Assembly (NCBI GenBank): GCA_949300385.1
Contig: CASGDZ010000001.1
Coordinates: 80,276-144,275 of the forward strand
DNA length: 64,000 nucleotides
Direction of reading: 5' to 3'
Origin: an uncultured Christensenella sp.
Lineage (GTDB): Bacteria; Bacillota; Clostridia; Christensenellales; UBA1242
This document shows, one piece after another, positions 7,007 to 64,000 of the stretch. The number at the start of each line of letters is the position of its first letter. The stretch's first letter is position 1. Under the pieces are notes generated by a model, which was not told the origin of the DNA, ran no database searches, and worked only from the letters and a program-made list of their open reading frames with translations. Made by a program: the position numbers and the translations under genes.

Positions 7007-8539
7007 ATGTTAGCAAAAATCTTATCATACGGATTAACAGGGATCAATGGGTATCCCGTAGAAATTGAATTGGATATAAATGCTGGTCTTCCAGGATACG
7101 ATGTAGTAGGTCTAGCAGATACTGCTATTAAGGAAAGCAAATCGCGTGTTAAAGCCGCAATTAAAAATAGTGCATATAATTATCCAATTAATAAAGTTAT
7201 AATAAATCTTGCACCTGCAGATACAAAGAAAGAAGGTAGCATGTATGATCTACCAATAGCACTAGGTATTTTAACAGCACAAGAAGATTTACCGGCAAAT
7301 GCTTTAAAAGATTATGTAGTATTGGGTGAATTAAGTTTAAATGGCGAAATTAGAAAAGTTAATGGAATTTTGCCAATGCTTATTAGTGCGAAACAGGCTA
7401 ATTATAATAAATTTATAATACCCAAAGAAAATGCTATGGAAGCATCATTTATTGATAAAATTGAAGTCTATCCAGTATCAACTCTGCGTGAAGTTGTACA
7501 ATTCTTAAAAGGCGAGATACAAATAGAAAAGAATAATTCTAAGACATTTGAATCCGCTTTGAAAGAACATGAATATAAGCATGATTTTGCATATGTACGC
7601 GGACAAGTTAGTGCTAAGCGGGCTATGGAGATAGCAGCGGCAGGCGGACATAATATTTTGTTAATTGGCCCACCGGGTGCAGGTAAGACTATGCTCGCAA
7701 AATGTTTCCCTTCAATATTGCCCGATTTGACATTTGAAGAGAGTTTGGAAGTAACAAAGATACATAGTGTGGCTGGCATTTTGGACCCTAAAAAAGGTAT
7801 AGTTATAGAGCGTCCATTTAGAAGTCCGCACCATACTGCGACATTAATTGCATTGACTGGAGGTGGGCAAAAAGCAAAACCGGGTGAAATTAGTCTAGCG
7901 CATAATGGTGTATTATTTTTAGATGAAATGCCTGAGTATGCGCGTAATACAATTGAAACACTTAGACAACCTATGGAAGATGGTTACATTACAGTTGCAA
8001 GAAACGCGCTAACTGTTCAATATCCTGCTAACTTTATTTTAGTAGCAAGTATGAACCCATGCCCATGCGGATACTATGGTAGCGCAACACATCCGTGCAA
8101 GTGTACACCTTCGGCGATACATAAATATTTATCAAAAATAAGCGGTCCGCTTATGGATAGAATAGATTTGCATATAGAAGTAGACGCAATCAATTATGAC
8201 GAATTGACAAAAAGCGATTTAGAAGAGCCAAGTAGTGAGATAAAGAAACGAGTAAACAAGGCGCGTGAAATTCAATTGACGCGATTTAAAAATAGTAAAA
8301 TATATGCTAATGCGAAAATGAATGAAAAGGAGTTTAAACAATATTGTAAACTTGATAGCGAATGTACGGAAATACTTGAACTTGCATTCAAAAAATTGAA
8401 TCTTTCAGCACGCGCATATAATAGAATCCTAAAAGTAGCACGCACAATCGCAGACCTTGATGGAAAAGAGAATATAGAAAAAGCACACATTATGGAAGCG
8501 ATACAATATCGCTCATTGGATAAAAAATATACGGTATAA
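7007..8539 (+). CDS. comM: Mg-chelatase-like AAA+ protein ComM/YifB
   Basis: Lon-protease-like N-terminal domain, AAA+ Walker A GPPGAGKT, Walker B LFLDE, and a Cys cluster NPCPCGYYG…CKC. ATG 7007 with an AAGAGG RBS is preferred over track start 6971. Confidence 0.9.
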   Translation: MLAKILSYGLTGINGYPVEIELDINAGLPGYDVVGLADTAIKESKSRVKAAIKNSAYNYPINKVIINLAPADTKKEGSMYDLPIALGILTAQEDLPANALKDYVVLGELSLNGEIRKVNGILPMLISAKQANYNKFIIPKENAMEASFIDKIEVYPVSTLREVVQFLKGEIQIEKNNSKTFESALKEHEYKHDFAYVRGQVSAKRAMEIAAAGGHNILLIGPPGAGKTMLAKCFPSILPDLTFEESLEVTKIHSVAGILDPKKGIVIERPFRSPHHTATLIALTGGGQKAKPGEISLAHNGVLFLDEMPEYARNTIETLRQPMEDGYITVARNALTVQYPANFILVASMNPCPCGYYGSATHPCKCTPSAIHKYLSKISGPLMDRIDLHIEVDAINYDELTKSDLEEPSSEIKKRVNKAREIQLTRFKNSKIYANAKMNEKEFKQYCKLDSECTEILELAFKKLNLSARAYNRILKVARTIADLDGKENIEKAHIMEAIQYRSLDKKYTV

Positions 8540-8540
8540 T

Positions 8541-9620
8541 ATGACAATTGATGATAAAAATATAATTTGGTTAGATTTATTCCCATTTATCACATATCAA
8601 AAGAAGGTTAAGATTCTTGAAATGTTTTCGCGAGGCGAAGATATCAAGCAGTCTTTTTCATCAAAACCTCAAATTCATGAAATGCTAACTGATATTGAAT
8701 ATAATAAGATGTTGTCAATGCGTGATGATATACGATTAAATCAGCGCATTGAAAAATATTTATCGGATGGAATAATACCTATTACAATTCACGATGACAG
8801 ATATCCTAGTATGTTGCGCGAGATTTCTTCGCCGCCATTGTGTTTGTATTGTAAAGGGAATTTGCAACTATTAAATAGTGAATGTATTGCAATAGTAGGT
8901 TCACGAAAATTGACTGATTACGGCGTTGTAACTACTAAGCAATATGCGTCTGCATTTAGTGAGTGCGATTTAACAATAGTTTCTGGATTAGCAGTAGGAG
9001 TGGATACAATTGCGCATAAAACTGCCATAGAACACAGCGGTAAAACTATTGCGGTATTAGCAGGCGGGCTATATAACATATATCCAGCAATCAATATCTC
9101 ACTAGCAAACAAATTATGTGAGAACAATCTAATAATTAGCGAAAATTGTCCTACAACTCCGCCACTAAGTTATCTTTTTCCTATACGAAATAGAATTATA
9201 GCAGGACTTTCGCGAGCAGTCGTCGTTACAGAAGCCGCAGAAAAGAGCGGATCTATTAAAACAGCGAGGTTTGCTTCTGAGTTTAATAGAGAAGTTTTTG
9301 CAATACCAGGTAAAATTAATTCGCCATTATCAAAGGGTACAAATTCACTAATTAAATCTTTAATTGCAAACATAACACTCTCACCAGATGATGTTTTAGA
9401 TAGTCTCAACATAAAAAAAGAAAATTCTGAAAATCCTACTCGTCAACTTGACATTAAAGAACAATTTGTATTAAATTATATTCGTACTGAGAAAAAGACT
9501 TTCCAAGAAATTGCAGATTATACTGAGATGTCAGCACGCGAATTGAACACTATTCTTATGGGTTTAGAAATGGTGGGTCTAGTAACAAAACTTGCCAATA
9601 ATAGTTATATAATGTCTTAA
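8541..9620 (+). CDS. dprA: DNA processing protein DprA (Smf)
   Basis: Rossmann-like DprA core (IAIVGSRK…SGLAVGVDTIAHK…FPIRNRIIAGLS) plus a C-terminal winged-helix tail. Confidence 0.9.
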   Translation: MTIDDKNIIWLDLFPFITYQKKVKILEMFSRGEDIKQSFSSKPQIHEMLTDIEYNKMLSMRDDIRLNQRIEKYLSDGIIPITIHDDRYPSMLREISSPPLCLYCKGNLQLLNSECIAIVGSRKLTDYGVVTTKQYASAFSECDLTIVSGLAVGVDTIAHKTAIEHSGKTIAVLAGGLYNIYPAINISLANKLCENNLIISENCPTTPPLSYLFPIRNRIIAGLSRAVVVTEAAEKSGSIKTARFASEFNREVFAIPGKINSPLSKGTNSLIKSLIANITLSPDDVLDSLNIKKENSENPTRQLDIKEQFVLNYIRTEKKTFQEIADYTEMSARELNTILMGLEMVGLVTKLANNSYIMS

Positions 9621-9647
9621 TCGATATTATATTTGCATAGGAGATTT

Positions 9648-11723
9648 ATGAAATTAGTTTTAATAGAAGGACCAGGTAAACAAGAAGCAATAAAAAAATA
9701 TTTAGGCGCAAATTATGTTGTTTTTGCAACAAAAGGTCATGTTAGAGACCTTCCTGAAAAATCATTTGGAATAGATTTAGAGAATAATTTTGAACCTAAA
9801 TATGAGATCATACCGAATAAAAAATCTACAGTAGAACAATTAAAAAAGTTAGCGAGTCAAGCAGAAGCAATCTATCTTGCGTCCGACCCGGATAGAGAGG
9901 GAGAAGCCATCTCTTGGCATATTGCTGAAATTTTAGGACTGAATAAAGATGCGTTGGTTCGTACAGCCTTTAATGAAATTAGTAAAAAAGCAGTAAATGA
10001 AAGTATATCGCATCCACGAGCAATAGATTATAATCTAGTAGACGCGCAACAAGGCAGACGTGTACTAGATAGAATAGTGGGATATAAATTAAGTCCATTA
10101 TTATCTAAAAAAATTCATGGTAAACTTAGTGCTGGTAGAGTTCAATCTGTTACTTTAAAACTTATTGTCGATAGGGAACGCACTATCCAAAACTTTGTTC
10201 CTGTTGAATATTGGAATATATCGGCTGAATTAAGTAAAAATGGACAAAAATTTAAATCAGATTTAGCGCTATATAAAGGCAAAAAAATCGAGATATCAAA
10301 TAAAGAGCAAGTAGATAATATACTTTCTTATATTGAAAATGCGGACTACAAAGTATCACAAGTAAAAAGGCAAGTGTCATACTCAAAACCGCCAGCGCCA
10401 TACATTACTACAACTTTACAACAAGACGCTATTAAAAAATTGAAAATGACTTTGAATTCATATACAAAGTGCGCGCAAACATTATATGAAGGGGTACAAA
10501 TTGCAGGAGAAGGCAAAACCGCGTTAGTAACATATATTCGTACCGATTCAACGCGTGTAAGTTTAGACGCGCAATTCATGGCAAAAGAGTATATTTTAGA
10601 AAATTATGGTAGCGAGTATCACCCAGGAAAATTCAACGAATTTTCAACAAAAGAGAGTGCACAAGACGCGCACGAAGCAATACGACCTATTAGCTTGAAA
10701 TATACTCCAGAATTTTTAAAAGGTAAAATAGAAGATCAATATCTTAAACTATATACACTTATATTTAAGCGATTTATAGCGAGCCAAATGAGTTATGCTA
10801 AATATGATACTTTGTCTGTAGACATAATAGCAGGAGAAGATTATACTTTCCGTTCGAGTGGAAGAGCATTGATATTTGATGGATATACCCGAGTATTAAA
10901 ACCACAAGATGATGAGAAGAGTGGCATAAATATACCAGACTTAATAGAGGGTGAGATTGTCCAAAAAGAAAAGATAAATACTGAGCAAAAATATACTAAA
11001 CCGCCAGTTCGATTTGACCAAGCGAGTATAGTTCACGAAATGGAAGTTCAGGCTATAGGTAGACCCTCAACAACCGCTTCTACAATAATGACATTATTTA
11101 ATAGAGAATATATCGCTACAGAGAAAAAATCAATTGTACCTACCGAATTAGGATTCCAAGTGACCGAATATTTGGAAGAATATTTTAAGAATGTTATGAA
11201 TGTAAAATTTACTGCTGAGATGGAAAAACAATTAGACGAAATCGCTGAAGGCAAGAAACATTGGCAAGATACAGTTGAAGAATTTTATGATACATTCGAA
11301 AAACAATTAAACTACGCTAGTGAGCAGATGGGGGTAAATGTACCTAAATCTGCACCTGAACCTAGCGATATAAAATGTGAAAAATGTGGTGCGATGATGG
11401 TGTACCGCGAAGGTAAGTTTGGCAAATTTCTTGCTTGTTCTAACTTCCCACAATGTAGGAATACTAAAAATATAAACGAAAACAATGTTACAGAAACGGG
11501 AGTTTGTCCAAAATGCGGTGGTGTAGTAAGCGCAAAATATTCGAAAAAGGGTAAATTATTCTTTGGTTGTGATAACTATCCAAAATGTGATTATATATCA
11601 TGGGATTTGCCTATAGAAGAAAAATGTCCTTTTTGTGGCAATAATCTATTTAAGAAATTCGGCCCAAAAGGCAAAATATCAATTCTATGCAATAACAAGG
11701 GTTGTACATATGTTAAAGATTAA
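9648..11723 (+). CDS. topA: DNA topoisomerase I
   Basis: TOPRIM start (MKLVLIEGPGK…DPDREGE), catalytic region (YIRTDS), and three to four C-terminal CxxC zinc ribbons. ATG 9648 with a TAGGAGA RBS. Confidence 0.95.
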   Translation: MKLVLIEGPGKQEAIKKYLGANYVVFATKGHVRDLPEKSFGIDLENNFEPKYEIIPNKKSTVEQLKKLASQAEAIYLASDPDREGEAISWHIAEILGLNKDALVRTAFNEISKKAVNESISHPRAIDYNLVDAQQGRRVLDRIVGYKLSPLLSKKIHGKLSAGRVQSVTLKLIVDRERTIQNFVPVEYWNISAELSKNGQKFKSDLALYKGKKIEISNKEQVDNILSYIENADYKVSQVKRQVSYSKPPAPYITTTLQQDAIKKLKMTLNSYTKCAQTLYEGVQIAGEGKTALVTYIRTDSTRVSLDAQFMAKEYILENYGSEYHPGKFNEFSTKESAQDAHEAIRPISLKYTPEFLKGKIEDQYLKLYTLIFKRFIASQMSYAKYDTLSVDIIAGEDYTFRSSGRALIFDGYTRVLKPQDDEKSGINIPDLIEGEIVQKEKINTEQKYTKPPVRFDQASIVHEMEVQAIGRPSTTASTIMTLFNREYIATEKKSIVPTELGFQVTEYLEEYFKNVMNVKFTAEMEKQLDEIAEGKKHWQDTVEEFYDTFEKQLNYASEQMGVNVPKSAPEPSDIKCEKCGAMMVYREGKFGKFLACSNFPQCRNTKNINENNVTETGVCPKCGGVVSAKYSKKGKLFFGCDNYPKCDYISWDLPIEEKCPFCGNNLFKKFGPKGKISILCNNKGCTYVKD

Positions 11724-13014
11724 TATAATAGGAGCAGGTTTAGCAGGTAGTGAGTGTGCGATATACTTGGCAAATCATGGTTATATAGTCAATCTATATG
11801 ATATAAAGGGAATGAGCCTAACTCCTGCACACCATAGCACTAATTATGCAGAAATTGTTTGCAGTAATTCATTAAAAAGCGATGACGATACTACTGCATC
11901 TGGTGTATTTAAAAGAGAACTCACACTATTAGGAAGCGCACTTTTAAAAACAGCCTATGAAGTAAGAGTCCCAGCAGGACAAGCATTAGCGGTAGATAGA
12001 GAAGAATTTTCAAATAAAATCACTCAATTAATAAAATCAAATAAAAATATCATTTTGCATACTGAAGAAGTAGATTCTTTTGTAGCAAACGCAATAACGA
12101 TTGTCGCAACAGGACCATTGACAACGGATAAAATGTGTAACGCTTTAAAAGACAAAATTGGACAAGATTTTCTATATTTCTACGATGCAGCAGCTCCAAT
12201 AATTAGTGCAGAAAGCATAGACATGAATAAGGCATTTTATGCTTCAAGATATGACAAGGGAGAAGCAGATTATCTTAATTGTCCTATGGAGAAGGACGAA
12301 TATCTAAAATTTTACAATGAGTTGATTAATGCCAAGACTATTGAATTACATTCGTTTGAAAAAAATAACATTTTCGAAAGTTGTATGCCGATAGAGATAT
12401 TAGCAAAACGCGGAACAGACACTATCAGATTTGGACCATTAAAACCGGTCGGGATAAAAAATCCGCATACAGGTACGCGTCCATATGCCGTAGTTCAGTT
12501 GAGAAAAGAAAATAATTATGCTACAATGTACAATATAGTAGGATTTCAAACAAATCTAACTTTTGGCGAGCAACAACGGGTTTTCAGACTTATTCCAGGT
12601 CTTGAAAATGCCGAATTTTTAAGATATGGAGTCATGCATACAAATCATTACATAAATTTTCCAAAAGTCTTAGACAAGTATTCAAGATTAAAAATTGACA
12701 ATAATATATACATTGCTGGTCAATTGTCAGGCGTGGAAGGATATGTCGAGAGTATTGCTAGTGGACTATATTGCGCTATTAATGTTATTAGACAATTAGA
12801 AGGAAACGAATTAATTAGTTTTAGTGCAGACACAATAATTGGAGGTTTATACAATTATTTAGAAAATGCAAATGAAATAAATTTTCAACCTATAAATGCT
12901 AATTTTGGAATATTAAATCCTATAAATGAGCGCGATAAAACAAAACGAAATATTATGTATCGAGACAGATCATTAACTGAAATAAATAAGATAATAGAAA
13001 AAATTAAGGAGTAA
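11710..13014 (+). CDS. trmFO: Methylenetetrahydrofolate-tRNA-(uracil-5)-methyltransferase TrmFO (Gid)
   Basis: FAD fold IIGAGLAGSE plus conserved TrmFO blocks (VCSNSLK, FFYDAAAPI-like, GFQTNL). Sits in the topA-trmFO-hslVU synteny. Start taken as ATG 11710. Confidence 0.92.
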   Translation: MLKINIIGAGLAGSECAIYLANHGYIVNLYDIKGMSLTPAHHSTNYAEIVCSNSLKSDDDTTASGVFKRELTLLGSALLKTAYEVRVPAGQALAVDREEFSNKITQLIKSNKNIILHTEEVDSFVANAITIVATGPLTTDKMCNALKDKIGQDFLYFYDAAAPIISAESIDMNKAFYASRYDKGEADYLNCPMEKDEYLKFYNELINAKTIELHSFEKNNIFESCMPIEILAKRGTDTIRFGPLKPVGIKNPHTGTRPYAVVQLRKENNYATMYNIVGFQTNLTFGEQQRVFRLIPGLENAEFLRYGVMHTNHYINFPKVLDKYSRLKIDNNIYIAGQLSGVEGYVESIASGLYCAINVIRQLEGNELISFSADTIIGGLYNYLENANEINFQPINANFGILNPINERDKTKRNIMYRDRSLTEINKIIEKIKE

Positions 13015-13016
13015 AC

Positions 13017-13553
13017 ATGGAACAATTTAGAGGCACAACCATTGTGGCAGTAAAAAGAAATGGAAAAACAGTTATTGCAGGAGACGGACAAGTTACATTA
13101 GGAGAAAAAATCGTTTTAAAAGGCACTGCACACAAAGTTCGCAGACTTTATAACGGCAAAGTTATAGTTGGATTTGCAGGCGGTACAGCGGACGCATTTG
13201 CTATGTTCGAAGAATTTGAAAAAATGCTCAATAAATATAGTGGAAGTCTAATGCGTAGTTCAGTTGAGTATGCTAAAACATTGCGCAATGGTGGCGGACA
13301 TAATGAATCAGGGGCTATCATGATAGTTGCTGATAAAGATACACTTTTAATGTTGACAAGCATTGGCGATGTAGTAGAACCAGATGACGGAATATGTGCT
13401 ACAGGTAGTGGCGGGTTCTATGCTTTATCTGCTGCTAAAGCATTAATGAGAAACACTGATTTGGACGCACGTACTATTGCTCTGCAATCTATGGAAATCG
13501 CAAGTGATATTTGTATTTTTACAAATAAAAACTTTGTTGTGGAGGAGGTGTAA
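13017..13553 (+). CDS. hslV: ATP-dependent protease subunit HslV (ClpQ)
   Basis: GTTIVAVKRNG…GDGQVT N-terminal nucleophile region and a GSGG motif. Confidence 0.93.
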   Translation: MEQFRGTTIVAVKRNGKTVIAGDGQVTLGEKIVLKGTAHKVRRLYNGKVIVGFAGGTADAFAMFEEFEKMLNKYSGSLMRSSVEYAKTLRNGGGHNESGAIMIVADKDTLLMLTSIGDVVEPDDGICATGSGGFYALSAAKALMRNTDLDARTIALQSMEIASDICIFTNKNFVVEEV

Positions 13554-57630: not shown

Positions 57631-58862
57631 CTATTGATAACAAATTGTTAGATTTAATTAATGATTGTGAAAATCAATCAAAAAAACAATTTGACGATAT
57701 TGAAAGAATTGAATTTAAAAATCAATTAAAAGTTCTAAACGCTTTTAATGAAAATCATATTCAATCATATCATTTTATTGGTAGTACTGGATATGGTCAT
57801 AATGATATAGGTAAAGAAAAAATTTGCGATGTATTCGCTTCTATTTTTCACACAGAATCCGCCTTTGTGAGTCCTTTAATTAGTTGCGGTACGGAAGCTA
57901 TAAGTCAAACTCTATTAGGTATTTTGCGTCCAGGTGATAATATGTTGTGCATATCTGGAACACCATACGATACTTTAAAAAAGGTCATTTATGGGGTAGA
58001 AGGGAAGGACATAGGGTCTTTAAAAGATTATAATATAAGTTATAATGAAATTGACTTAATAGATAATGATTTTGATATACCTGCAATAATTAAATTTATC
58101 TCTTTGCACAGCCCAAAATTAATTTATATTCAACGCTCTCGTGGCTATTCTTTAAGAAACGCTATTACAATATCACAGATAGGCAATCTAATTAAATCAA
58201 TCCGACCTTATACAAATGCTTATATAGTAGTAGATAATTGCTATGGAGAATTTACTGAAGAATTAGAGCCAACCGATGTAGGTGCAGATTTGGTAGTGGG
58301 TTCATTATTGAAAAATATGGGAGGAGGGATAGCCCCAACTGGCGGATATATTGCAGGAAAGAGCGAACTAATTGAACTGATTTCATATAAGTTGACTAGT
58401 CCTGCATTAAGTACTGATACAGGTTCATATGAACCAGGTTATAAAGCGTTCTTTGAAGGTGTATTCCTTGCTCCTCATGTAGTAGCAGAGAGTAAAAAAC
58501 TCGTAGTCATTACTTCAATGTGCTTATCAAAATTAGGATATAAGACAATCCCAAATACAAATCAACCTATAAGCGATATTGTATGTACAATTGTATTCAA
58601 TGATAAAAATAAGTTAATTAATTTCTCAAAAGCCATTCAAGCATCTAGTGCAATCGATAGCGATTCTGTATTAGAGGCAGGAGAGATGGACGGATATGAC
58701 GACCTTATAATTATGGCAAGTGGAAGTTTTAATCAGGGTAGTAGTATTGAATTAAGTTGCGATGGACCTATGCGCGAGCCATATGCTGGTTATATTCAAG
58801 GTTGCCTAACATATCAACATGGCAAAATCGGATTAATGAACGCCCTTAGAACTTTACAATAA
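57624..58862 (+). CDS. YnbB-like Cys/Met-metabolism PLP enzyme ('aluminium resistance' family)
   Basis: 412 aa. The family was recognised by overall pattern (…GYGHNDIGKE…; SLLKNMGGGIAPTGGYIAG) and by its conserved location after the mutSL-miaA cluster. Confidence 0.75.
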   Translation: MLTIDNKLLDLINDCENQSKKQFDDIERIEFKNQLKVLNAFNENHIQSYHFIGSTGYGHNDIGKEKICDVFASIFHTESAFVSPLISCGTEAISQTLLGILRPGDNMLCISGTPYDTLKKVIYGVEGKDIGSLKDYNISYNEIDLIDNDFDIPAIIKFISLHSPKLIYIQRSRGYSLRNAITISQIGNLIKSIRPYTNAYIVVDNCYGEFTEELEPTDVGADLVVGSLLKNMGGGIAPTGGYIAGKSELIELISYKLTSPALSTDTGSYEPGYKAFFEGVFLAPHVVAESKKLVVITSMCLSKLGYKTIPNTNQPISDIVCTIVFNDKNKLINFSKAIQASSAIDSDSVLEAGEMDGYDDLIIMASGSFNQGSSIELSCDGPMREPYAGYIQGCLTYQHGKIGLMNALRTLQ

Positions 58863-59039
58863 TCTATTTATATTTTGCGACAATTTTGTTAATAAAAAAA
58901 GTTAGACATGTATTATTCTACATGCCCAATTTTTTATATAAGTAGGAGAAATACAAACGCTAAATAACTAAAATTAATAATGTTAAAATTATGCAATGCA
59001 TCACAAATGAATAAAAAATAATCAAGGAAGCATTTGTAA

Positions 59040-59054
59040 TTTTACGCAATGATA
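59040..59054 (+). repeat. Arm motif copy A (TTTTACGCAATGATA; 14/15 match)
   Basis: Matches TTTTRCGCAAAGATA with one mismatch. Its TTTACG doubles as the -35 of a promoter. Confidence 0.7.
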
Positions 59055-59068
59055 CATATTGATATAAT
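59041..59068 (+). promoter_or_regulatory. sigma-A-like promoter inside the non-coding island
   Basis: TTTACG (59041-59046), 16 nt spacer, TATAAT (59063-59068), with TG at 59060-59061. Confidence 0.45.
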
Positions 59069-59143
59069 GATATAAATCGATATATAATATAATTTCAATA
59101 AGATAAATTAAGCAAAAATTCTAAAAATTTGGAGAAATATATG

Positions 59144-59327
59144 TGTGGACAAAGTAGAGGAGGAAGAAAGATTTACATATATATCTTTGCGCAAAACACT
59201 TCTTTTGCGCAAAGATATTGCAATTTTGGGCTAAAAACCTGTGGAAATGCCATTTTTTATCCACACATTCTAACTTATTATAAATATTGTTACAATTTTC
59301 GACAAGATTGACTTTTAATAATCCACA
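59144..59327. promoter_or_regulatory. DnaA-box cluster (4 boxes in 184 bp)
   Basis: Against TTATCCACA, the four boxes are:
- 59144-59152: tgtggacaa, reverse orientation, 1 mismatch
- 59240-59248: tgtggaaat, reverse orientation, 2 mismatches
- 59257-59265: ttatccaca, perfect
- 59319-59327: taatccaca, 1 mismatch. Confidence 0.45.
59181..59218. repeat. Perfect 16-6-16 inverted repeat (arm motif copies B and C)
   Basis: The sequence reads ATATCTTTGCGCAAAA-CACTTC-TTTTGCGCAAAGATAT. The arms are exact reverse complements. Each arm also contains the 10-nt palindrome TTTGCGCAAA. Confidence 0.95.
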
Positions 59328-59690
59328 ATGCCATTTTGTGCATTTTAATTCATTTTATGTTAATAATTTTATGACCTAGTCTTTGACATTTTTTAATATT
59401 TGCAATATTTTAATAATCTTAAAACTTTGTCTTAAATCAACTGAAATTCAAATGACCAATTACTCATCTTTTTTTATTTGAATTCGTCTCAGCGCAGATC
59501 TGACGGGTATAAAATATTAGATAGCCATTAATTGACAAATTATATTATTTAACCAATATTTAAATCCAATGATTTTTCCTTTGCTTAAATTAGATTTATA
59601 GAAATTAAATATAATTTCTTTACAATAACATATTATGATTTGCCTTATCTATGACCTATTATACTGTCAAAGATTAGCAAAAATTAGATT

Positions 59691-59719
59691 ATATTATCAT
59701 ATTGTTATCTTTGCGTAAA
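59691..59719 (-). promoter_or_regulatory. Minus-strand sigma-A-like promoter overlapping arm copy D
   Basis: On the minus strand: TTTACG (59714-59719), 17 nt spacer, TAATAT (59691-59696) preceded by TG. It points into the non-coding island. Confidence 0.4.
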
Positions 59720-59722
59720 AAC
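59706..59722. repeat. 17-bp inverted repeat, left copy (arm motif copy D)
   Basis: TATCTTTGCGTAAAAAC is the exact reverse complement of 61376-61392. Confidence 0.95.
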
Positions 59723-59759
59723 CTTTAATTATAATTTTTATATCGATTTTAATTATTCT

Positions 59760-59791
59760 AAAAAACAAAAGACTAACATAATGCTAGTCTT
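59760..59791 (-). terminator. Rho-independent terminator for serS (+ small ORF)
   Basis: On the minus strand, aagactagc/gttagtctt stem (one G-U pair), loop attat, then TTTTGTTTTTT. Confidence 0.75.
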
Positions 59792-59795
59792 CATT

Positions 59796-59912
59796 TTACC
59801 ATTTCCATAATTTAGTTCTGATTTTTCTTTGTCTACCGCTTTTAGTACTCGGAATACCAGTTGTTTTTGATATTTTGGTTTTAACCTTTGTTATACCAAA
59901 ATTCTTTTCCAA
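59796..59912 (-). CDS. Candidate 38-aa highly basic small protein (TTG start; not in ORF track)
   Basis: GGAGG lies 6 nt upstream of the TTG, with an in-frame TAG immediately upstream. The product is MEKNFGITKVKTKISKTTGIPSTKSGRQRKIRTKLWKW. Its stop is 4 nt before the terminator, and there is no terminator between it and serS. Confidence 0.3.
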   Translation of the reverse strand: MEKNFGITKVKTKISKTTGIPSTKSGRQRKIRTKLWKW

Positions 59913-59980
59913 CTAAATCCTCCACCATTCATATCTCATCTACTATCCTTTTTTGTTATCAGAATTTAGATGTATCCTAC

Positions 59981-61267
59981 TTACTTTTTTACATTAATAA
60001 CTTTTGTTCCACCCATATAAGGCCACAAAACTTCTGGTATTGTCACACTACCATCTGCTTGTAAATGATTCTCTACGAAAGCGATTAACATTCTTGGTGG
60101 CGCAACGACTGTATTGTTTAATGTATGAGCAAACACATTCCCTTTATCTGATTTATATCTTATCCCTAAACGCCTAGCTTGAGCGTCTGTCAGATTACTA
60201 CATGAACCAACTTCAAAATATTTTTTTTGTCTAGGACTCCATGCTTCCACATCCAAACTACGATATTTTAAATCTGCCAAATCACCCGAACAACAGATTA
60301 ATGTTCTTACAGGAATTTTCATAGAAACAAATAACTCTACAGTGTAATTCCACATTTTTTCGTACCAACTTTCGCTGTCTTCAGGTTTGCATATAACAAT
60401 CATTTCTTGCTTTTCAAATTGGTGTATACGATAAATACCCCTTTCCTCTATGCCATGAGCGCCTTTCTCTTTTCTAAAACACGGACTATAAGATGTTAAA
60501 GTTATCGGCAACTTATCTTCTGGTATGATTGTGTCCATAAATCTACCTATCATACTATGTTCACTTGTACCAATAAGATATAAATCTTCTCCTTCAATCT
60601 TATACATCATATTGCCCATTTCTTCAAAACTCATAACGCCTTCAACCACACTGCTATGAATCATAAATGGCGGAATTACATAAGTAAATCCTTTATTGAT
60701 CATAAAGTCTCTGGCATATGCTAAAATAGCACTATGCAAACGCGCAATATCGCCTGTTAAATAATAGAATCCTTGCCCAGAAGTACGCCTAGCGCTATCA
60801 ATATCTATTCCGTCCAATTTCTCTAATATTTCAGTATGATATGGAACTTCAAAGTCCGGAACTTTAGGCTCTAAGAAAGTTTGCGCTTGGACATTAGATC
60901 TATCATCTTCGCCGATAGGGACATCATCTGCAATAATGTTAGGAATAGTCATCATAGCGCGCTTAATCTTTTCATCCAATTCACTGACTTCCTTCTCTAT
61001 AGAAGTTATCCTTTCGTTGTTAATAACGACTTCTGCTTTTACTTTATTAGCATCATCAATGCGCTTTTCTTTCATAAGCATGCCGATTTGACTGGACAAT
61101 GTGTTCCTTTTTGCTCTTAAATCATCGCCTTCTTTTTTTAAAGCACGGACCTTTTTATCCATATCAATAACTTCATCAACTAAATGTAGTTTATGATCTT
61201 GAAATTTCTTTTTAATGTTTTCTTTTACTTTATCAGGATTGTTTCTTAAAAAATTAATATCTATCAT
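59981..61267 (-). CDS. serS: Serine-tRNA ligase
   Basis: N-terminal coiled-coil arm plus a class II core (FRKEKGAHGIEERGIYRIHQFEKQE; GTSEHSM). AAGAGG RBS. Confidence 0.96.
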   Translation of the reverse strand: MIDINFLRNNPDKVKENIKKKFQDHKLHLVDEVIDMDKKVRALKKEGDDLRAKRNTLSSQIGMLMKEKRIDDANKVKAEVVINNERITSIEKEVSELDEKIKRAMMTIPNIIADDVPIGEDDRSNVQAQTFLEPKVPDFEVPYHTEILEKLDGIDIDSARRTSGQGFYYLTGDIARLHSAILAYARDFMINKGFTYVIPPFMIHSSVVEGVMSFEEMGNMMYKIEGEDLYLIGTSEHSMIGRFMDTIIPEDKLPITLTSYSPCFRKEKGAHGIEERGIYRIHQFEKQEMIVICKPEDSESWYEKMWNYTVELFVSMKIPVRTLICCSGDLADLKYRSLDVEAWSPRQKKYFEVGSCSNLTDAQARRLGIRYKSDKGNVFAHTLNNTVVAPPRMLIAFVENHLQADGSVTIPEVLWPYMGGTKVINVKK

Positions 61268-61284
61268 ATATGCCTCTTGGGTTT

Positions 61285-61313
61285 ATTATATCAAAACATA
61301 ATAAAATTTGCAA
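61285..61313 (-). promoter_or_regulatory. sigma-A-like promoter for serS (no T-box leader)
   Basis: On the minus strand: TTGCAA (61308-61313), 17 nt spacer, TATAAT (61285-61290). The leader is only about 15 nt. Confidence 0.6.
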
Positions 61314-61375
61314 CAAATTAAAATTTTATAATAAAAATTTTACCAATTTTCAGAAAAATATATATAAAATAATTT

Positions 61376-61392
61376 GTTTTTACGCAAAGATA
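61376..61392. repeat. 17-bp inverted repeat, right copy (arm motif copy E)
   Basis: GTTTTTACGCAAAGATA is the exact reverse complement of 59706-59722. It lies immediately upstream of the recombinase -10. Confidence 0.95.
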
Positions 61393-61395
61393 TTG

Positions 61396-61401
61396 TATAA
61401 T
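61396..61401 (+). promoter_or_regulatory. -10 element of recombinase gene, leaderless-type geometry
   Basis: TATAAT, 7 nt, ATG 61409, with no SD. The -35 is poor (TTTGTT at 17 nt). Confidence 0.4.
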
Positions 61402-61408
61402 ATGATAT

Positions 61409-62455
61409 ATGTCATCAAATTATTATTTGGATAGAAATAGAAATAATATGCGAAAATTAAATGAAATGTTGACTGAATTGCCAGCATTCTGTTCTATATT
61501 TTTTATCGGTATTCAGGATACCACCACTCCACTCACAAGATTGAATTATGCTGTTGATTTAAAGACATTTTTTAATTATCTAACCACTTATGAAACAAAT
61601 TTTATGGGTCGTGATGTGCGAACTATTACATTAGCAGATATCGATAAAATTGATGCTCAGACGATTGAAAGATATATGGCATCATTATCTTATTATGATA
61701 AAGATAATGGCAAAATATATACTAATGGCGAGCGTGGTAAACTTAGAAAACTTTCTAGTCTGCGTGCATTTTTTAAATACTTTTTCAATAAAGATATGCT
61801 ACGCGCTAATGTTGCTAGTAAAGTTGCAAGTCCGAAACTGCATGAAAAACCTATCATTCGCCTAGAAAACCAAGAAACTGCTGAATTGATGTATTCATGT
61901 GAAACTCTATCTGGATTTAGTGATCACCAAAAGAAATACAATGAAAAATTTAAAGTTAGAGATAATGCCATTTTATCGCTTTTCTTAACGACAGGTATTC
62001 GTGTTAGTGAATGTGTTGGATTGAATGTTGACGACATAAATTTCAACCTAAATTCTTTTAGAGTTACTAGAAAAGGTGGAAATCAAGTTATACTCTATTT
62101 TGGAGAAGAAACAGCAGAAGCGTTGAATAAATACCTTGCTTTTAGAGACACATTAAATTTACCCAAAGAAGAACTAGCACTATTTATTTCAAGTCAAGGT
62201 AAACGAATGGTGGTTAGATCTATGGAATATTTAGTCAAAAAATATGCAAAAATCGCTACCCCATTAAAAAATATAACTCCTCATAAATTGCGATCTACAT
62301 ACGGAACAAATCTTTATAATGAGACTAAAGATATTTATATTGTCGCAGAAGTATTAGGTCATAAAGATGTCAATACTACAAAAAAACATTATGCCGCAAT
62401 AAGCGACGATGTTCGAAAATCTGTAGCTGGTAAAGTCAAACTCAACAATATGTAG
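61409..62455 (+). CDS. Tyrosine site-specific recombinase, XerS-like architecture
   Basis: 348 aa with the catalytic set R (TTGIRVSE), HxxR (TPHKLRST) and H…Y (LGHKDVNTTKKHY). The VTRKGG block and long N-terminal core-binding domain resemble single-recombinase XerS as I recall it. No alignment was run. Confidence 0.85.
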   Translation: MSSNYYLDRNRNNMRKLNEMLTELPAFCSIFFIGIQDTTTPLTRLNYAVDLKTFFNYLTTYETNFMGRDVRTITLADIDKIDAQTIERYMASLSYYDKDNGKIYTNGERGKLRKLSSLRAFFKYFFNKDMLRANVASKVASPKLHEKPIIRLENQETAELMYSCETLSGFSDHQKKYNEKFKVRDNAILSLFLTTGIRVSECVGLNVDDINFNLNSFRVTRKGGNQVILYFGEETAEALNKYLAFRDTLNLPKEELALFISSQGKRMVVRSMEYLVKKYAKIATPLKNITPHKLRSTYGTNLYNETKDIYIVAEVLGHKDVNTTKKHYAAISDDVRKSVAGKVKLNNM

Positions 62456-62512: not shown

Positions 62513-62618
62513 CAATTGATGTTTCCAACCAATTGATAGATTAATATTTTATTTCTAACTATATGTTTACTATTAGAAGATAATTTTGCTATCTTGATAT
62601 TAATTTTATCCATTTTAT

Positions 62619-62632
62619 CGAACAAATGTTTG
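62619..62632. promoter_or_regulatory. LexA (Cheo-type) box upstream of lexA
   Basis: CGAACAAATGTTTG fits GAAC-N4-GTTY and lies 8 nt upstream of a TTGACA -35. Autoregulation is expected for lexA. Confidence 0.65.
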
Positions 62633-62640
62633 AAAAGTGT

Positions 62641-62669
62641 TTGACAATTGTTTGAATATATGATAGATT
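62641..62669 (+). promoter_or_regulatory. sigma-A-like promoter for lexA
   Basis: TTGACA (62641-62646), 17 nt spacer, TAGATT (62664-62669). A TAGGAG RBS lies before ATG 62690. Confidence 0.55.
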
Positions 62670-63398: not shown

Positions 63399-64000
63399 AT
63401 GAAAACGACAGATTTGATACCTTTAATTTTGCTCCAACTCAATGAAGGAGATAAATATGGCTTAGAATTGACTAAGGCCATTGAAACAAAATCTAATGGT
63501 AAAATTATCATTAAACAACCTACTCTTTACACTATCTTGAAAAAATTAGAAAAATCTAAATTCATTAAATCTTATTGGGAAGATAGTGAAATCGGTGGTA
63601 AACGCCACTATTATAAAATAACAGATAATGGCAAATCTCAAGTATCGACTTTGCCTTCTTTTGATGCTTTAATATCTTCTATACTATCTTCAGAAGATAA
63701 TTATAATCTTGATGAAAGCAATACATTTAACAATAACGAATCAGATAATCAGTCAGATAATCAGAATGAAAACAATTATGATTTAAACAATAATATGTCT
63801 TATTCCATAATGGATCTATTAGATAATCAAAATTCTACGGTTGATAATGTAAAAAATACGCCTACTACCCCTAGCATATTACCAAGCGAGGAAGTATTTT
63901 CTTCAAATTCTATCGATACAGCCACAGAAACTGAGATAAACATGTCAAATTCCGATTTATTAAAATCTAAATCTGATAGCCAAAACGAACATTTTGCAAA
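63399..64000 (+). CDS. PadR-family transcriptional regulator with N/D/S-rich C-terminal extension (3' end outside window)
   Basis: I translated this by hand. MKTTDLIPLILLQLNEGDKYGLELTKAIETKSNGKIIIKQPTLYTILKKLEKSKFIKSYWEDSEIGGKRHYYKITDNGK is a PadR winged helix. The frame stays open to base 64000. It is absent from the ORF track because it has no stop in the window. Confidence 0.8.
   Translation, partial: MKTTDLIPLILLQLNEGDKYGLELTKAIETKSNGKIIIKQPTLYTILKKLEKSKFIKSYWEDSEIGGKRHYYKITDNGKSQVSTLPSFDALISSILSSEDNYNLDESNTFNNNESDNQSDNQNENNYDLNNNMSYSIMDLLDNQNSTVDNVKNTPTTPSILPSEEVFSSNSIDTATETEINMSNSDLLKSKSDSQNEHFA

Follow-up and report, generated by a model that had tools for sequence, protein, structure and literature searches.

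We analysed a stretch of 64,000 nucleotides of DNA from an uncultured Christensenella sp. (the whole of it is called the window below), in which a 15-nt motif, TTTTRCGCAAAGATA, occurs five times around serS and beside the gene of a Xer-type tyrosine recombinase (xer). The explanation that we hold to be very probable is that the motif is the binding arm of this recombinase, that the two copies B and C together form its dif site, the dimer-resolution site of the chromosome, and that the last copy, E, lies in the xer promoter. A sequence-only reading of the window had already described five copies in alternating orientation, and our motif scan of the window found them at the same coordinates and on the same strands. 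Copy A (59040-59054, plus strand) is a solitary right-type arm, TTTTACGCAATGATA, with one mismatch, and is directed at dif from 143 bp to its left; copy D (59706-59722, minus strand, 15-nt motif at 59706-59720) is a solitary left-type arm, TATCTTTGCGTAAAAAC, 488 bp to the right of dif; and copy E (61378-61392, plus strand) reads TTTTACGCAAAGATA. These five matches at no more than one mismatch compare with 0.05 expected in the window (100 dinucleotide-preserving shuffles, none of which gave more than one), and there was no sixth copy at up to two mismatches within the 64 kb, which bears out what had earlier been judged from an eye scan. It had been overlooked that B and C make up one perfect 16-6-16 palindrome, ATATCTTTGCGCAAAA-CACTTC-TTTTGCGCAAAGATAT, at 59181-59218. 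Its left arm is copy B (59181-59196, minus strand, 15-nt motif at 59182-59196), its right arm is copy C (59203-59218, plus strand, 15-nt motif at 59203-59217), and the central region CACTTC (59197-59202, plus strand) is 6 bp long and asymmetric. Two inverted arms around a 6-bp centre are the anatomy of a tyrosine-recombinase core site.

The comparison with relatives covered 18 loci obtained by exact-protein look-ups and 47 orthologous loci from GTDB species representatives (Xer 63-91% identical; L numbers below denote such loci). The palindrome is present once per locus in 34 related species, as it is once in the 64-kb window, and its two arms mostly vary in step. At arm position 12 the 34 sites are C/C in 21 cases and T/T in 10, with 3 discordant (31/34 concordant); at arm position 9 they are G/G in 27 and T/T in 5, with 2 discordant (32/34 concordant); and positions 6 and 7, which rarely change, are concordant whenever they do. 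The concordant arm pairs are GCGC/GCGC, GCGT/ACGC, TCGC/GCGA, CATTGCGC/GCGCAATG, CTCTTCGC/GCGAAGAG and CTATTCGC/GCGAATAG. That both arms mostly change together is as expected if one protein species binds both. The 6-bp centre is asymmetric, and seven spacer types are found over the 34 species. No dif of the Bacillus subtilis or Escherichia coli type was found in the window above shuffled controls. Judged from these sequence comparisons, B-C is in all likelihood the dif site of the adjacent Xer-type recombinase. The sequence TTTTRCGCAAAGAT would be the DNA arm recognised by the recombinase encoded at 61409-62455, two recombinase monomers would occupy each site, two sites would synapse, and strands would be exchanged at the edges of the 6-bp centre. 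We infer that the adjacent Xer, and no other protein, binds all of the arms.

The recombinase gene (61409-62455, plus strand) encodes 348 amino acids and matches PF00589 with E=7e-31; the catalytic residues R198, K222, H292, R295, H318 and Y328 are all present and are invariant in an alignment of nine sequences. Its top NCBIfam model is XerS (the equivalog NF003462), aligned over the full length with 176 bits, under the cut-off of 267, and XerC, XerA and XerD follow close behind. The nearest solved structure is XerD (1a0p), and XerH (5jjv) is weakly similar (E=1.7e-7). The closest database relatives come from Candidatus Onthoplasma and from Clostridia metagenome-assembled genomes of the order Christensenellales. 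The gene lies 2.2 kb from the palindrome in the window and 1.8-4.7 kb from it across the clade, with serS between.

The palindrome is also the point at which polar motifs change strand. Over 27 species, AGGG[CT]AG (AGGGYAG) was counted 65 times on the plus strand and not once on the minus strand to the left of the palindrome, and not once on the plus strand and 88 times on the minus strand to its right; the strand changes inside the 2-kb bins touching the site, although about half of the genes on the right side are on the plus strand. The motif GAAGAAG is distributed 65/10 (plus/minus) on the left and 21/84 on the right. In the window alone, the relaxed form RGGGYAG has eight plus and one minus copies on the left and zero plus and two minus copies on the right. 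Its plus-strand starts are 1786, 3609, 14419, 19007, 38298, 44077, 57993 and 58735, the nearest copy (58735-58741) being directed at dif, and its minus-strand starts are 5662, 62256 and 63865, the nearest copy right of dif being 62256-62262, followed by 63865-63871. One AGGGYAG copy belongs to the conserved left flank of dif. Moreover, genes left of the site are on the plus strand in 163 cases and on the minus strand in one, and are mixed on the right, and the cumulative GC skew of the window peaks at 58-60 kb. The plus-strand GC skew at third codon positions (GC3 skew) of plus-strand genes is about -0.04 left and about -0.2 right of the site; the direction of this shift is the expected one, but because the measure is confounded by gene content, we take it as supportive only. 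Within the approximately 60 kb around the site that this comparison covered, the sequence thus behaves as it should where two replichores converge. FtsK-guiding sequences elsewhere are converging polar G-rich motifs. As the motifs at this locus resemble them, we read AGGGYAG as a candidate FtsK-orienting motif of the clade, and recombination would probably be directed by FtsK reading the AGGGYAG motifs that converge on dif. No ftsK gene is present among the window open reading frames (ORFs) checked.

Recombination at the site has left traces in the relatives. In four species, prophages sit exactly at the palindrome (L002, 2562-7972; L007, 2366-7693; L028, 521-5893; L065, 1633-7496). They belong to gokushovirus-like microviruses, which are small single-stranded DNA phages, measure 5.3-5.8 kb and have Phage_F, Chlamy_scaf and Rep genes but no integrase. 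That of L002, 5.4 kb long, carries Phage_ORF5, Chlamy_scaf, the capsid gene Phage_F, the replication gene REP_ORF2-G2P and an HTH gene. In all four the left junction (attL) consists of the host left arm, a spacer and a degenerate phage arm, and the right junction (attR) is an intact dif. These filled sites were compared with empty ones of conspecific or sister loci, namely L001 and L003 (conspecific with L002), L008, and L029 and L032. At the left junction of L002 the host left arm is followed by CCCTTC and the degenerate arm CTTTACGCAAAAAT, and at the right junction there is a perfect dif with the host spacer CTCTTC. Because the spacer is CCCTTC at attL and CTCTTC both at attR and in the empty site, the crossover took place at or inside the 6-bp centre. 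The filled/empty comparison in four hosts shows recombination at the site, not which enzyme acts; the pattern of the prophages is, on our analysis, the signature of integration through host Xer. With a conserved site and a recombinase that is always present, integrase-less microviruses of these relatives would carry a mimic of dif and integrate there. The window itself has no phage protein match and no prophage remnant; evidence of a mobile element at the site comes from L002, L007, L028 and L065.

The dif of L007 after integration (7660-7693, compared with 7666-7699 in L008) has a phage-derived left arm of the GCGC type and a host right arm of the ACGC type. Phage traffic thus appears to rewrite one dif arm, and may contribute to the arm variation between species. 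A search of IMG/VR for the attachment site of the free phage (attP) gave no match to the full-site pattern, and the 15-mer was found in 67 contigs, mostly unrelated. Among 80 capsid relatives in IMG/VR the site was present only in two contigs with host flanks (L074 and L133), and no circular genome with attP was found.

Copy E is built into the promoter of xer (61374-61401, plus strand), which consists of the -35 element TTGTTT (61374-61379), the arm TTTTACGCAAAGATA at 61378-61392, a TG, and the -10 element TATAAT (61396-61401), so that the earlier remark that E abuts the -10 of the recombinase gene holds. Of 42 species, 35 have a -10 element that begins exactly 4 nt after the 14-nt arm E, 24 have a TTG 5 nt before the arm, and 19 have an extended TG. 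The arm thus fills the spacer of an xer promoter of the sigma-A type, and promoter spacers are normally not conserved in sequence. In the outgroups L058 and L059 (63-64% Xer identity) a complete dif is located at -92 and -82 from xer, with a -10-like hexamer, read by eye, 3 nt after the dif right arm in L058 and 4 nt after it, as at E, in L059; neither outgroup has solitary arms. Since dif in the outgroups overlaps the xer promoter, an arrangement also described for xerS/difSL and xerH/difH (PMC5357621, PMC2731167), E most likely descended from a dif arm and was retained as an operator. For XerH, the dissociation constant is 180 nM with a single-arm substrate and 150 nM with the full site (PMC5241119). 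So small a difference makes it plausible that monomers bind solitary arms. On the basis of its sequence and position we lean slightly towards E being an autoregulatory operator of xer, at which a bound monomer would hinder RNA polymerase and thereby cause negative autoregulation.

In essentially all species of the clade, copy D is found 340-1045 bp to the right of dif, with no mismatch and in an unchanged orientation. It lies just past the terminator of the serS operon (in the window, a terminator-like hairpin on the minus strand at 59768-59792 closes the serS transcript) and has no partner arm. A T-run shared by the arm and the terminator hairpin of the flanking gene is seen for 20 of 51 D- or A-type arms, compared with 1 of 42 for E. 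Arms of the A type, on the left and on the plus strand, were found only in the window, L020, L036, L044 and L063, and are absent from L019 and most species; in three of the A-bearing species there are two arms per side, roughly symmetric. The strict alternation of orientation described earlier is hence a property of the window, since species with doubled arms read (+)(+) dif (-)(-). Inward-facing promoters had been proposed at A and D. Our promoter scan did pick up a match that overlaps A (TTTACG-16-TATAAT, 59041-59068), the one at D remained under the threshold, and neither is supported as a conserved feature; among 51 solitary D- and A-type arms there was no fixed -10, only a weak excess at +10 to +12. 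The proposal that all of the copies are operators thus gains support for E, which keeps a fixed register in the xer promoter in 35/42 species.

D and A face dif from either side, often at the terminators of flanking genes, and are most likely extra recombinase-binding sites that would delimit or organise the dif island. A broader and more tentative possibility is that the dimer-resolution recombinase doubles as a DNA-binding regulator or architectural protein, with the invariant half-sites keeping single monomers bound to the xer promoter and to the terminator-bounded borders of the dif island. Monomers at half-sites that cannot be recombined would set the dosage of recombinase, and might insulate or organise the dif region together with the TGTGGA boxes described below. 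It could also be that serS was captured into an ancestral promoter-proximal dif and became fixed inside a recombination site, of which D and E would be the two halves.

Of the alternatives, the one that survives best is that a separate, conserved DNA-binding regulator has A, D and E as its operators, and that their likeness to the dif arms is historical only. Indeed, the solitary arms vary less than the dif arms and change independently of them, and E lies inside a promoter. However, the solitary arms are identical over 14-15 bp to dif arm variants of sister species, and in the outgroups the right arm of dif itself holds the position of E. Moreover, such a regulator would have a one-locus regulon, because the motif is confined to the island except for a few stray copies elsewhere in the approximately 21-kb loci of relatives (at no more than one mismatch, e.g. 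at +5962 from xer in L048 and at -4690 in L063). The LexA boxes upstream of lexA differ in sequence. We regard a separate regulator as unlikely. Quite unlikely, too, is that the solitary arms are inert relics, either of phage integrations or of an ancestral promoter-proximal dif split by serS. Phage integration does make extra arms at the locus, A is sporadic and has a mismatch, solitary arms are missing from the outgroups, whose dif lies directly upstream of xer, and D, of the left type, and E, of the right type, would together make one site. Relics would decay, however, and D and E are kept with no mismatch in about 40 species while the nearby intergenic DNA has diverged freely; and whereas the arms that phages left at attL are degenerate, the solitary arms are not.

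Several points weigh against our explanation that the arms belong to the adjacent Xer, with B-C as dif. The recombinase misses the curated cut-off of the XerS equivalog and is not a member of that family. The counts of the polar motif in the window alone are small, and the pooled counts come from orthologous loci, which are not independent. The evidence covers the sequence near the site, and further copies of it, or canonical xerC/xerD genes and another dif, may exist elsewhere on the chromosome, where the true skew minimum may also lie. Neither D nor A keeps a constant position relative to a -10 element or a constant distance to dif, so that no mechanism is supported for them. Finally, the solitary arms do not follow the dif arms: where the latter are TTTTGCGAAAAGAT, D and E yet stay TTTTACGCAAAGAT. 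Another protein may bind the solitary arms, or the recombinase may accept both forms, in that a lone monomer requires the optimal sequence whereas dif, bound cooperatively, can do with variants.

The sequence-only reading had favoured a multi-site inversion module, in which the recombinase flips the intervals A-B and C-D and/or the serS segment D-E. It was right to tie the motif to the adjacent tyrosine recombinase. The case for inversion is that neighbouring copies in the window are all inverted, that a tyrosine recombinase gene is adjacent, and that D and E extend, as had been noticed, to a perfect 17-bp inverted repeat (59706-59722 and 61376-61392) that encloses 1653 bp. However, B-C is one core site with a 6-bp centre and not the ends of two segments, and none of A, D and E is accompanied by an arm-like partner at 6 bp, which leaves them incomplete as recombination sites. 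The order mgl - dif - serS(-) - xer - lexA (mgl being a Met_gamma_lyase-family gene) and the orientation of serS are constant in 32/32 species that carry serS here, so that the comparison of related genomes, which had been suggested as a check, revealed no inversion in the assembled loci. Likewise, three sets of conspecific contigs from independent metagenome assemblies show a single orientation, and C-D is colinear in the four sequences that were aligned (the window, L001, L003 and L005); an exact-protein look-up of the window's own recombinase returned no record, so that the within-species comparison covers relatives. A is missing from most relatives, the two additional bases that make up the 17-bp repeat of D and E are not conserved in them, and flipping an essential serS with its own promoter would give no obvious switch output. 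Where crossovers at the site are seen in nature, they are integrations of phages into B-C. We therefore consider an inversion module very improbable. The weakest alternative, that the B-C palindrome is merely a hairpin (a terminator or an RNA element) and no recombination site, is scarcely credible: symmetric arm changes would keep a stem too, but no T-run follows the palindrome on either strand, Rfam gives no match, the prophage junctions show exchange within the palindrome centre, and the AGGGYAG polarity switch falls exactly at the palindrome.

The left part of the window consists of approximately 58 kb of housekeeping genes, nearly all on the plus strand, which end with mutS, mutL, miaA and mgl. 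After mgl there is 1.1 kb of non-coding DNA that carries A, B-C and D, followed by serS on the minus strand (59981-61267, serine-tRNA ligase, TIGR00414 with 411.7 bits), which lies between D and E, then by E, the recombinase gene and lexA. A TGTGGA box (59144-59149, plus strand) is located approximately 33 bp left of dif and is followed by a G-rich block, GTAGAGGAGG, at 59153-59162; the left-flank consensus TGTGGA ... GgG..gtG is kept in 34 species and is also found on the phage side of attR in L002 and L028. An inverted repeat, TGTGGAAATGCCATTTTTTATCCACA (59240-59265), starts 22 bp to the right of dif, with the consensus tGTGGAaA-N-T.TCCACa in nearly all of the 34 species. The TGTGGA boxes that flank dif may be accessory sequences for recombination, and the TTCGTCTSAGCGCA box is grouped with them as a candidate target of accessory proteins.

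A conserved box, TCATCT-N13-TTCGTCT[CG]AGCGCAGAT, is present at 59464-59499 of the window amid non-coding DNA that otherwise drifts freely, and in many relatives one to four copies of it occur between dif and serS (at 7932 and 7985 in L034, and four in L035). The box shows no consistent hairpin, no Rfam match and no ORF; from its sequence, it could be a protein-binding site or a promoter of an alternative sigma factor. In some species there is an extra 1-2 kb between dif and serS, the gap being 2475 bp in L028 and L032, 1840 bp in L035, 1465 bp in L037 and 1254 bp in L026. As D is 468 bp from dif in L028 and L032, the extra DNA in these two sits between D and serS, possibly as another inserted element. 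In the outgroup L058 the mgl-miaA block (9232-13311) lies beyond dif-xer-lexA on the other side and on the opposite strand, which fits an earlier inversion centred symmetrically on the terminus.

Between serS and its terminator there is a basic ORF of 38 aa (59796-59912, minus strand), with a strong Shine-Dalgarno sequence GGAGGA, a spacing of 6 nt and a TTG start. It has no family match, its sequence is absent from the nearest species, and tblastn found no counterpart in 60 related loci. No small conserved protein was found in 58863-59980, where a 60-aa ORF likewise has no conserved counterpart; tblastn matches in this interval occur in every frame, owing to the DNA conservation around dif. 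At the gathering threshold, Rfam models matched only a tRNA-Glu at 42.4 kb in the whole window, and with E up to 1 they matched nothing in the locus (58800-61450). Upstream of lexA, at 62610-62660, there are two LexA-box-like repeats, ACAAATGTTTGAA and ACAATTGTTTGAA, with CGAACAAATGTTTG, which are unrelated to the arm motif. LexA and PadR were rejected as owners of the arms, as the LexA boxes differ in sequence and the PadR-domain gene is found downstream of lexA in relatives. A mobile repeat (a miniature inverted-repeat transposable element or the ends of an insertion sequence) was rejected as well, since the motif is restricted to one locus.

In single-recombinase Xer systems, dif lies beside the recombinase gene (PMC5357621, PMC2731167). 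The XerS/difSL system of streptococci and lactococci shares with the present one a single recombinase of approximately 350 aa, a Firmicute host, A-tracts that flank a 6-bp centre and a site linked to the gene, and the outgroups L058 and L059 have the site directly upstream of xer, as difSL has (PMC5357621). It differs from our system, in which the arms are 14-16 bp long, nearly perfectly symmetric and of another sequence, serS lies between site and gene, and there are conserved solitary arms. XerH/difH of Helicobacter and Campylobacter is likewise a single recombinase with a near-palindromic ...GAAAA-N6-TTTTC... site close to the gene (PMC2731167); its arm sequence is different, the protein similarity is weak, and no solitary arms are described for difH in the literature examined. 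XerL/dif of the Legionellales, found via LME-1, resembles the present case in its logic: the chromosomal dimer-resolution site of a single recombinase specific to the lineage is revealed by a mobile element that carries a mimic of dif (PMC9765430). It belongs to another phylum, with another recombinase and site, and its function was established genetically, whereas the evidence here is comparative. In the TnpI sites of Tn4430 and Tn5401, extra copies of the recombinase motif adjoin the core at fixed spacing and overlap the promoter. They are alike in that the binding motif occurs as an inverted core pair plus single copies, one of which would regulate the recombinase's own gene; in the present system, by contrast, the extra motifs stand at variable distances from the core, namely 130-1000 bp and 2.2 kb. 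The module differs from the known ones in that serS parts dif from its gene, that the promoter has kept an invariant half-site, and that dif is flanked by more half-sites, which are conserved.

The prophages of the relatives have counterparts as well. The gokushovirus EC6098 integrates at E. coli dif through host Xer, as was shown experimentally (PMC7062461), and like EC6098 and CTX-phi the prophages described here lack an integrase and lie at dif between one good and one degenerate dif-like site (PMC7062461, PMC5357621). They differ from those cases in their hosts, Clostridia of the order Christensenellales that have one XerS-like recombinase instead of XerC/XerD. In a 2022 paper, predicted microvirus prophages are named from Bacteroidales, Hyphomicrobiales and Enterobacteriaceae only (PMC9753089). 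Links between gokushoviruses and Clostridiales rest on CRISPR spacers, from which the hosts of gut microviruses are mostly inferred (PMC10159846).

Taken together, the module appears from its sequence to be a single-recombinase Xer/dif system of the XerS/XerH/XerL kind, with dependent microviruses, in uncultured Christensenellales; no description of it was found in the literature that we searched, the coverage of which was incomplete. It defines a site, a recombinase and a candidate FtsK-guiding motif for a widespread uncultured gut clade (Candidatus Onthoplasma and relatives), and the sequence of the site is unlike the Bacillus-type dif that was predicted earlier for most Firmicutes (PMC3025954). 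It also raises the questions of whether Xer represses its own promoter from the half-site and of what role the half-sites flanking dif have. For annotation, an inversion switch should not be the default when short inverted repeats are found beside a recombinase gene. The integration junctions provide a direct assignment of gut microviruses to Clostridia hosts and evidence of lysogeny, and, if our explanation is true, microvirus lysogeny through host Xer extends to single-recombinase systems.

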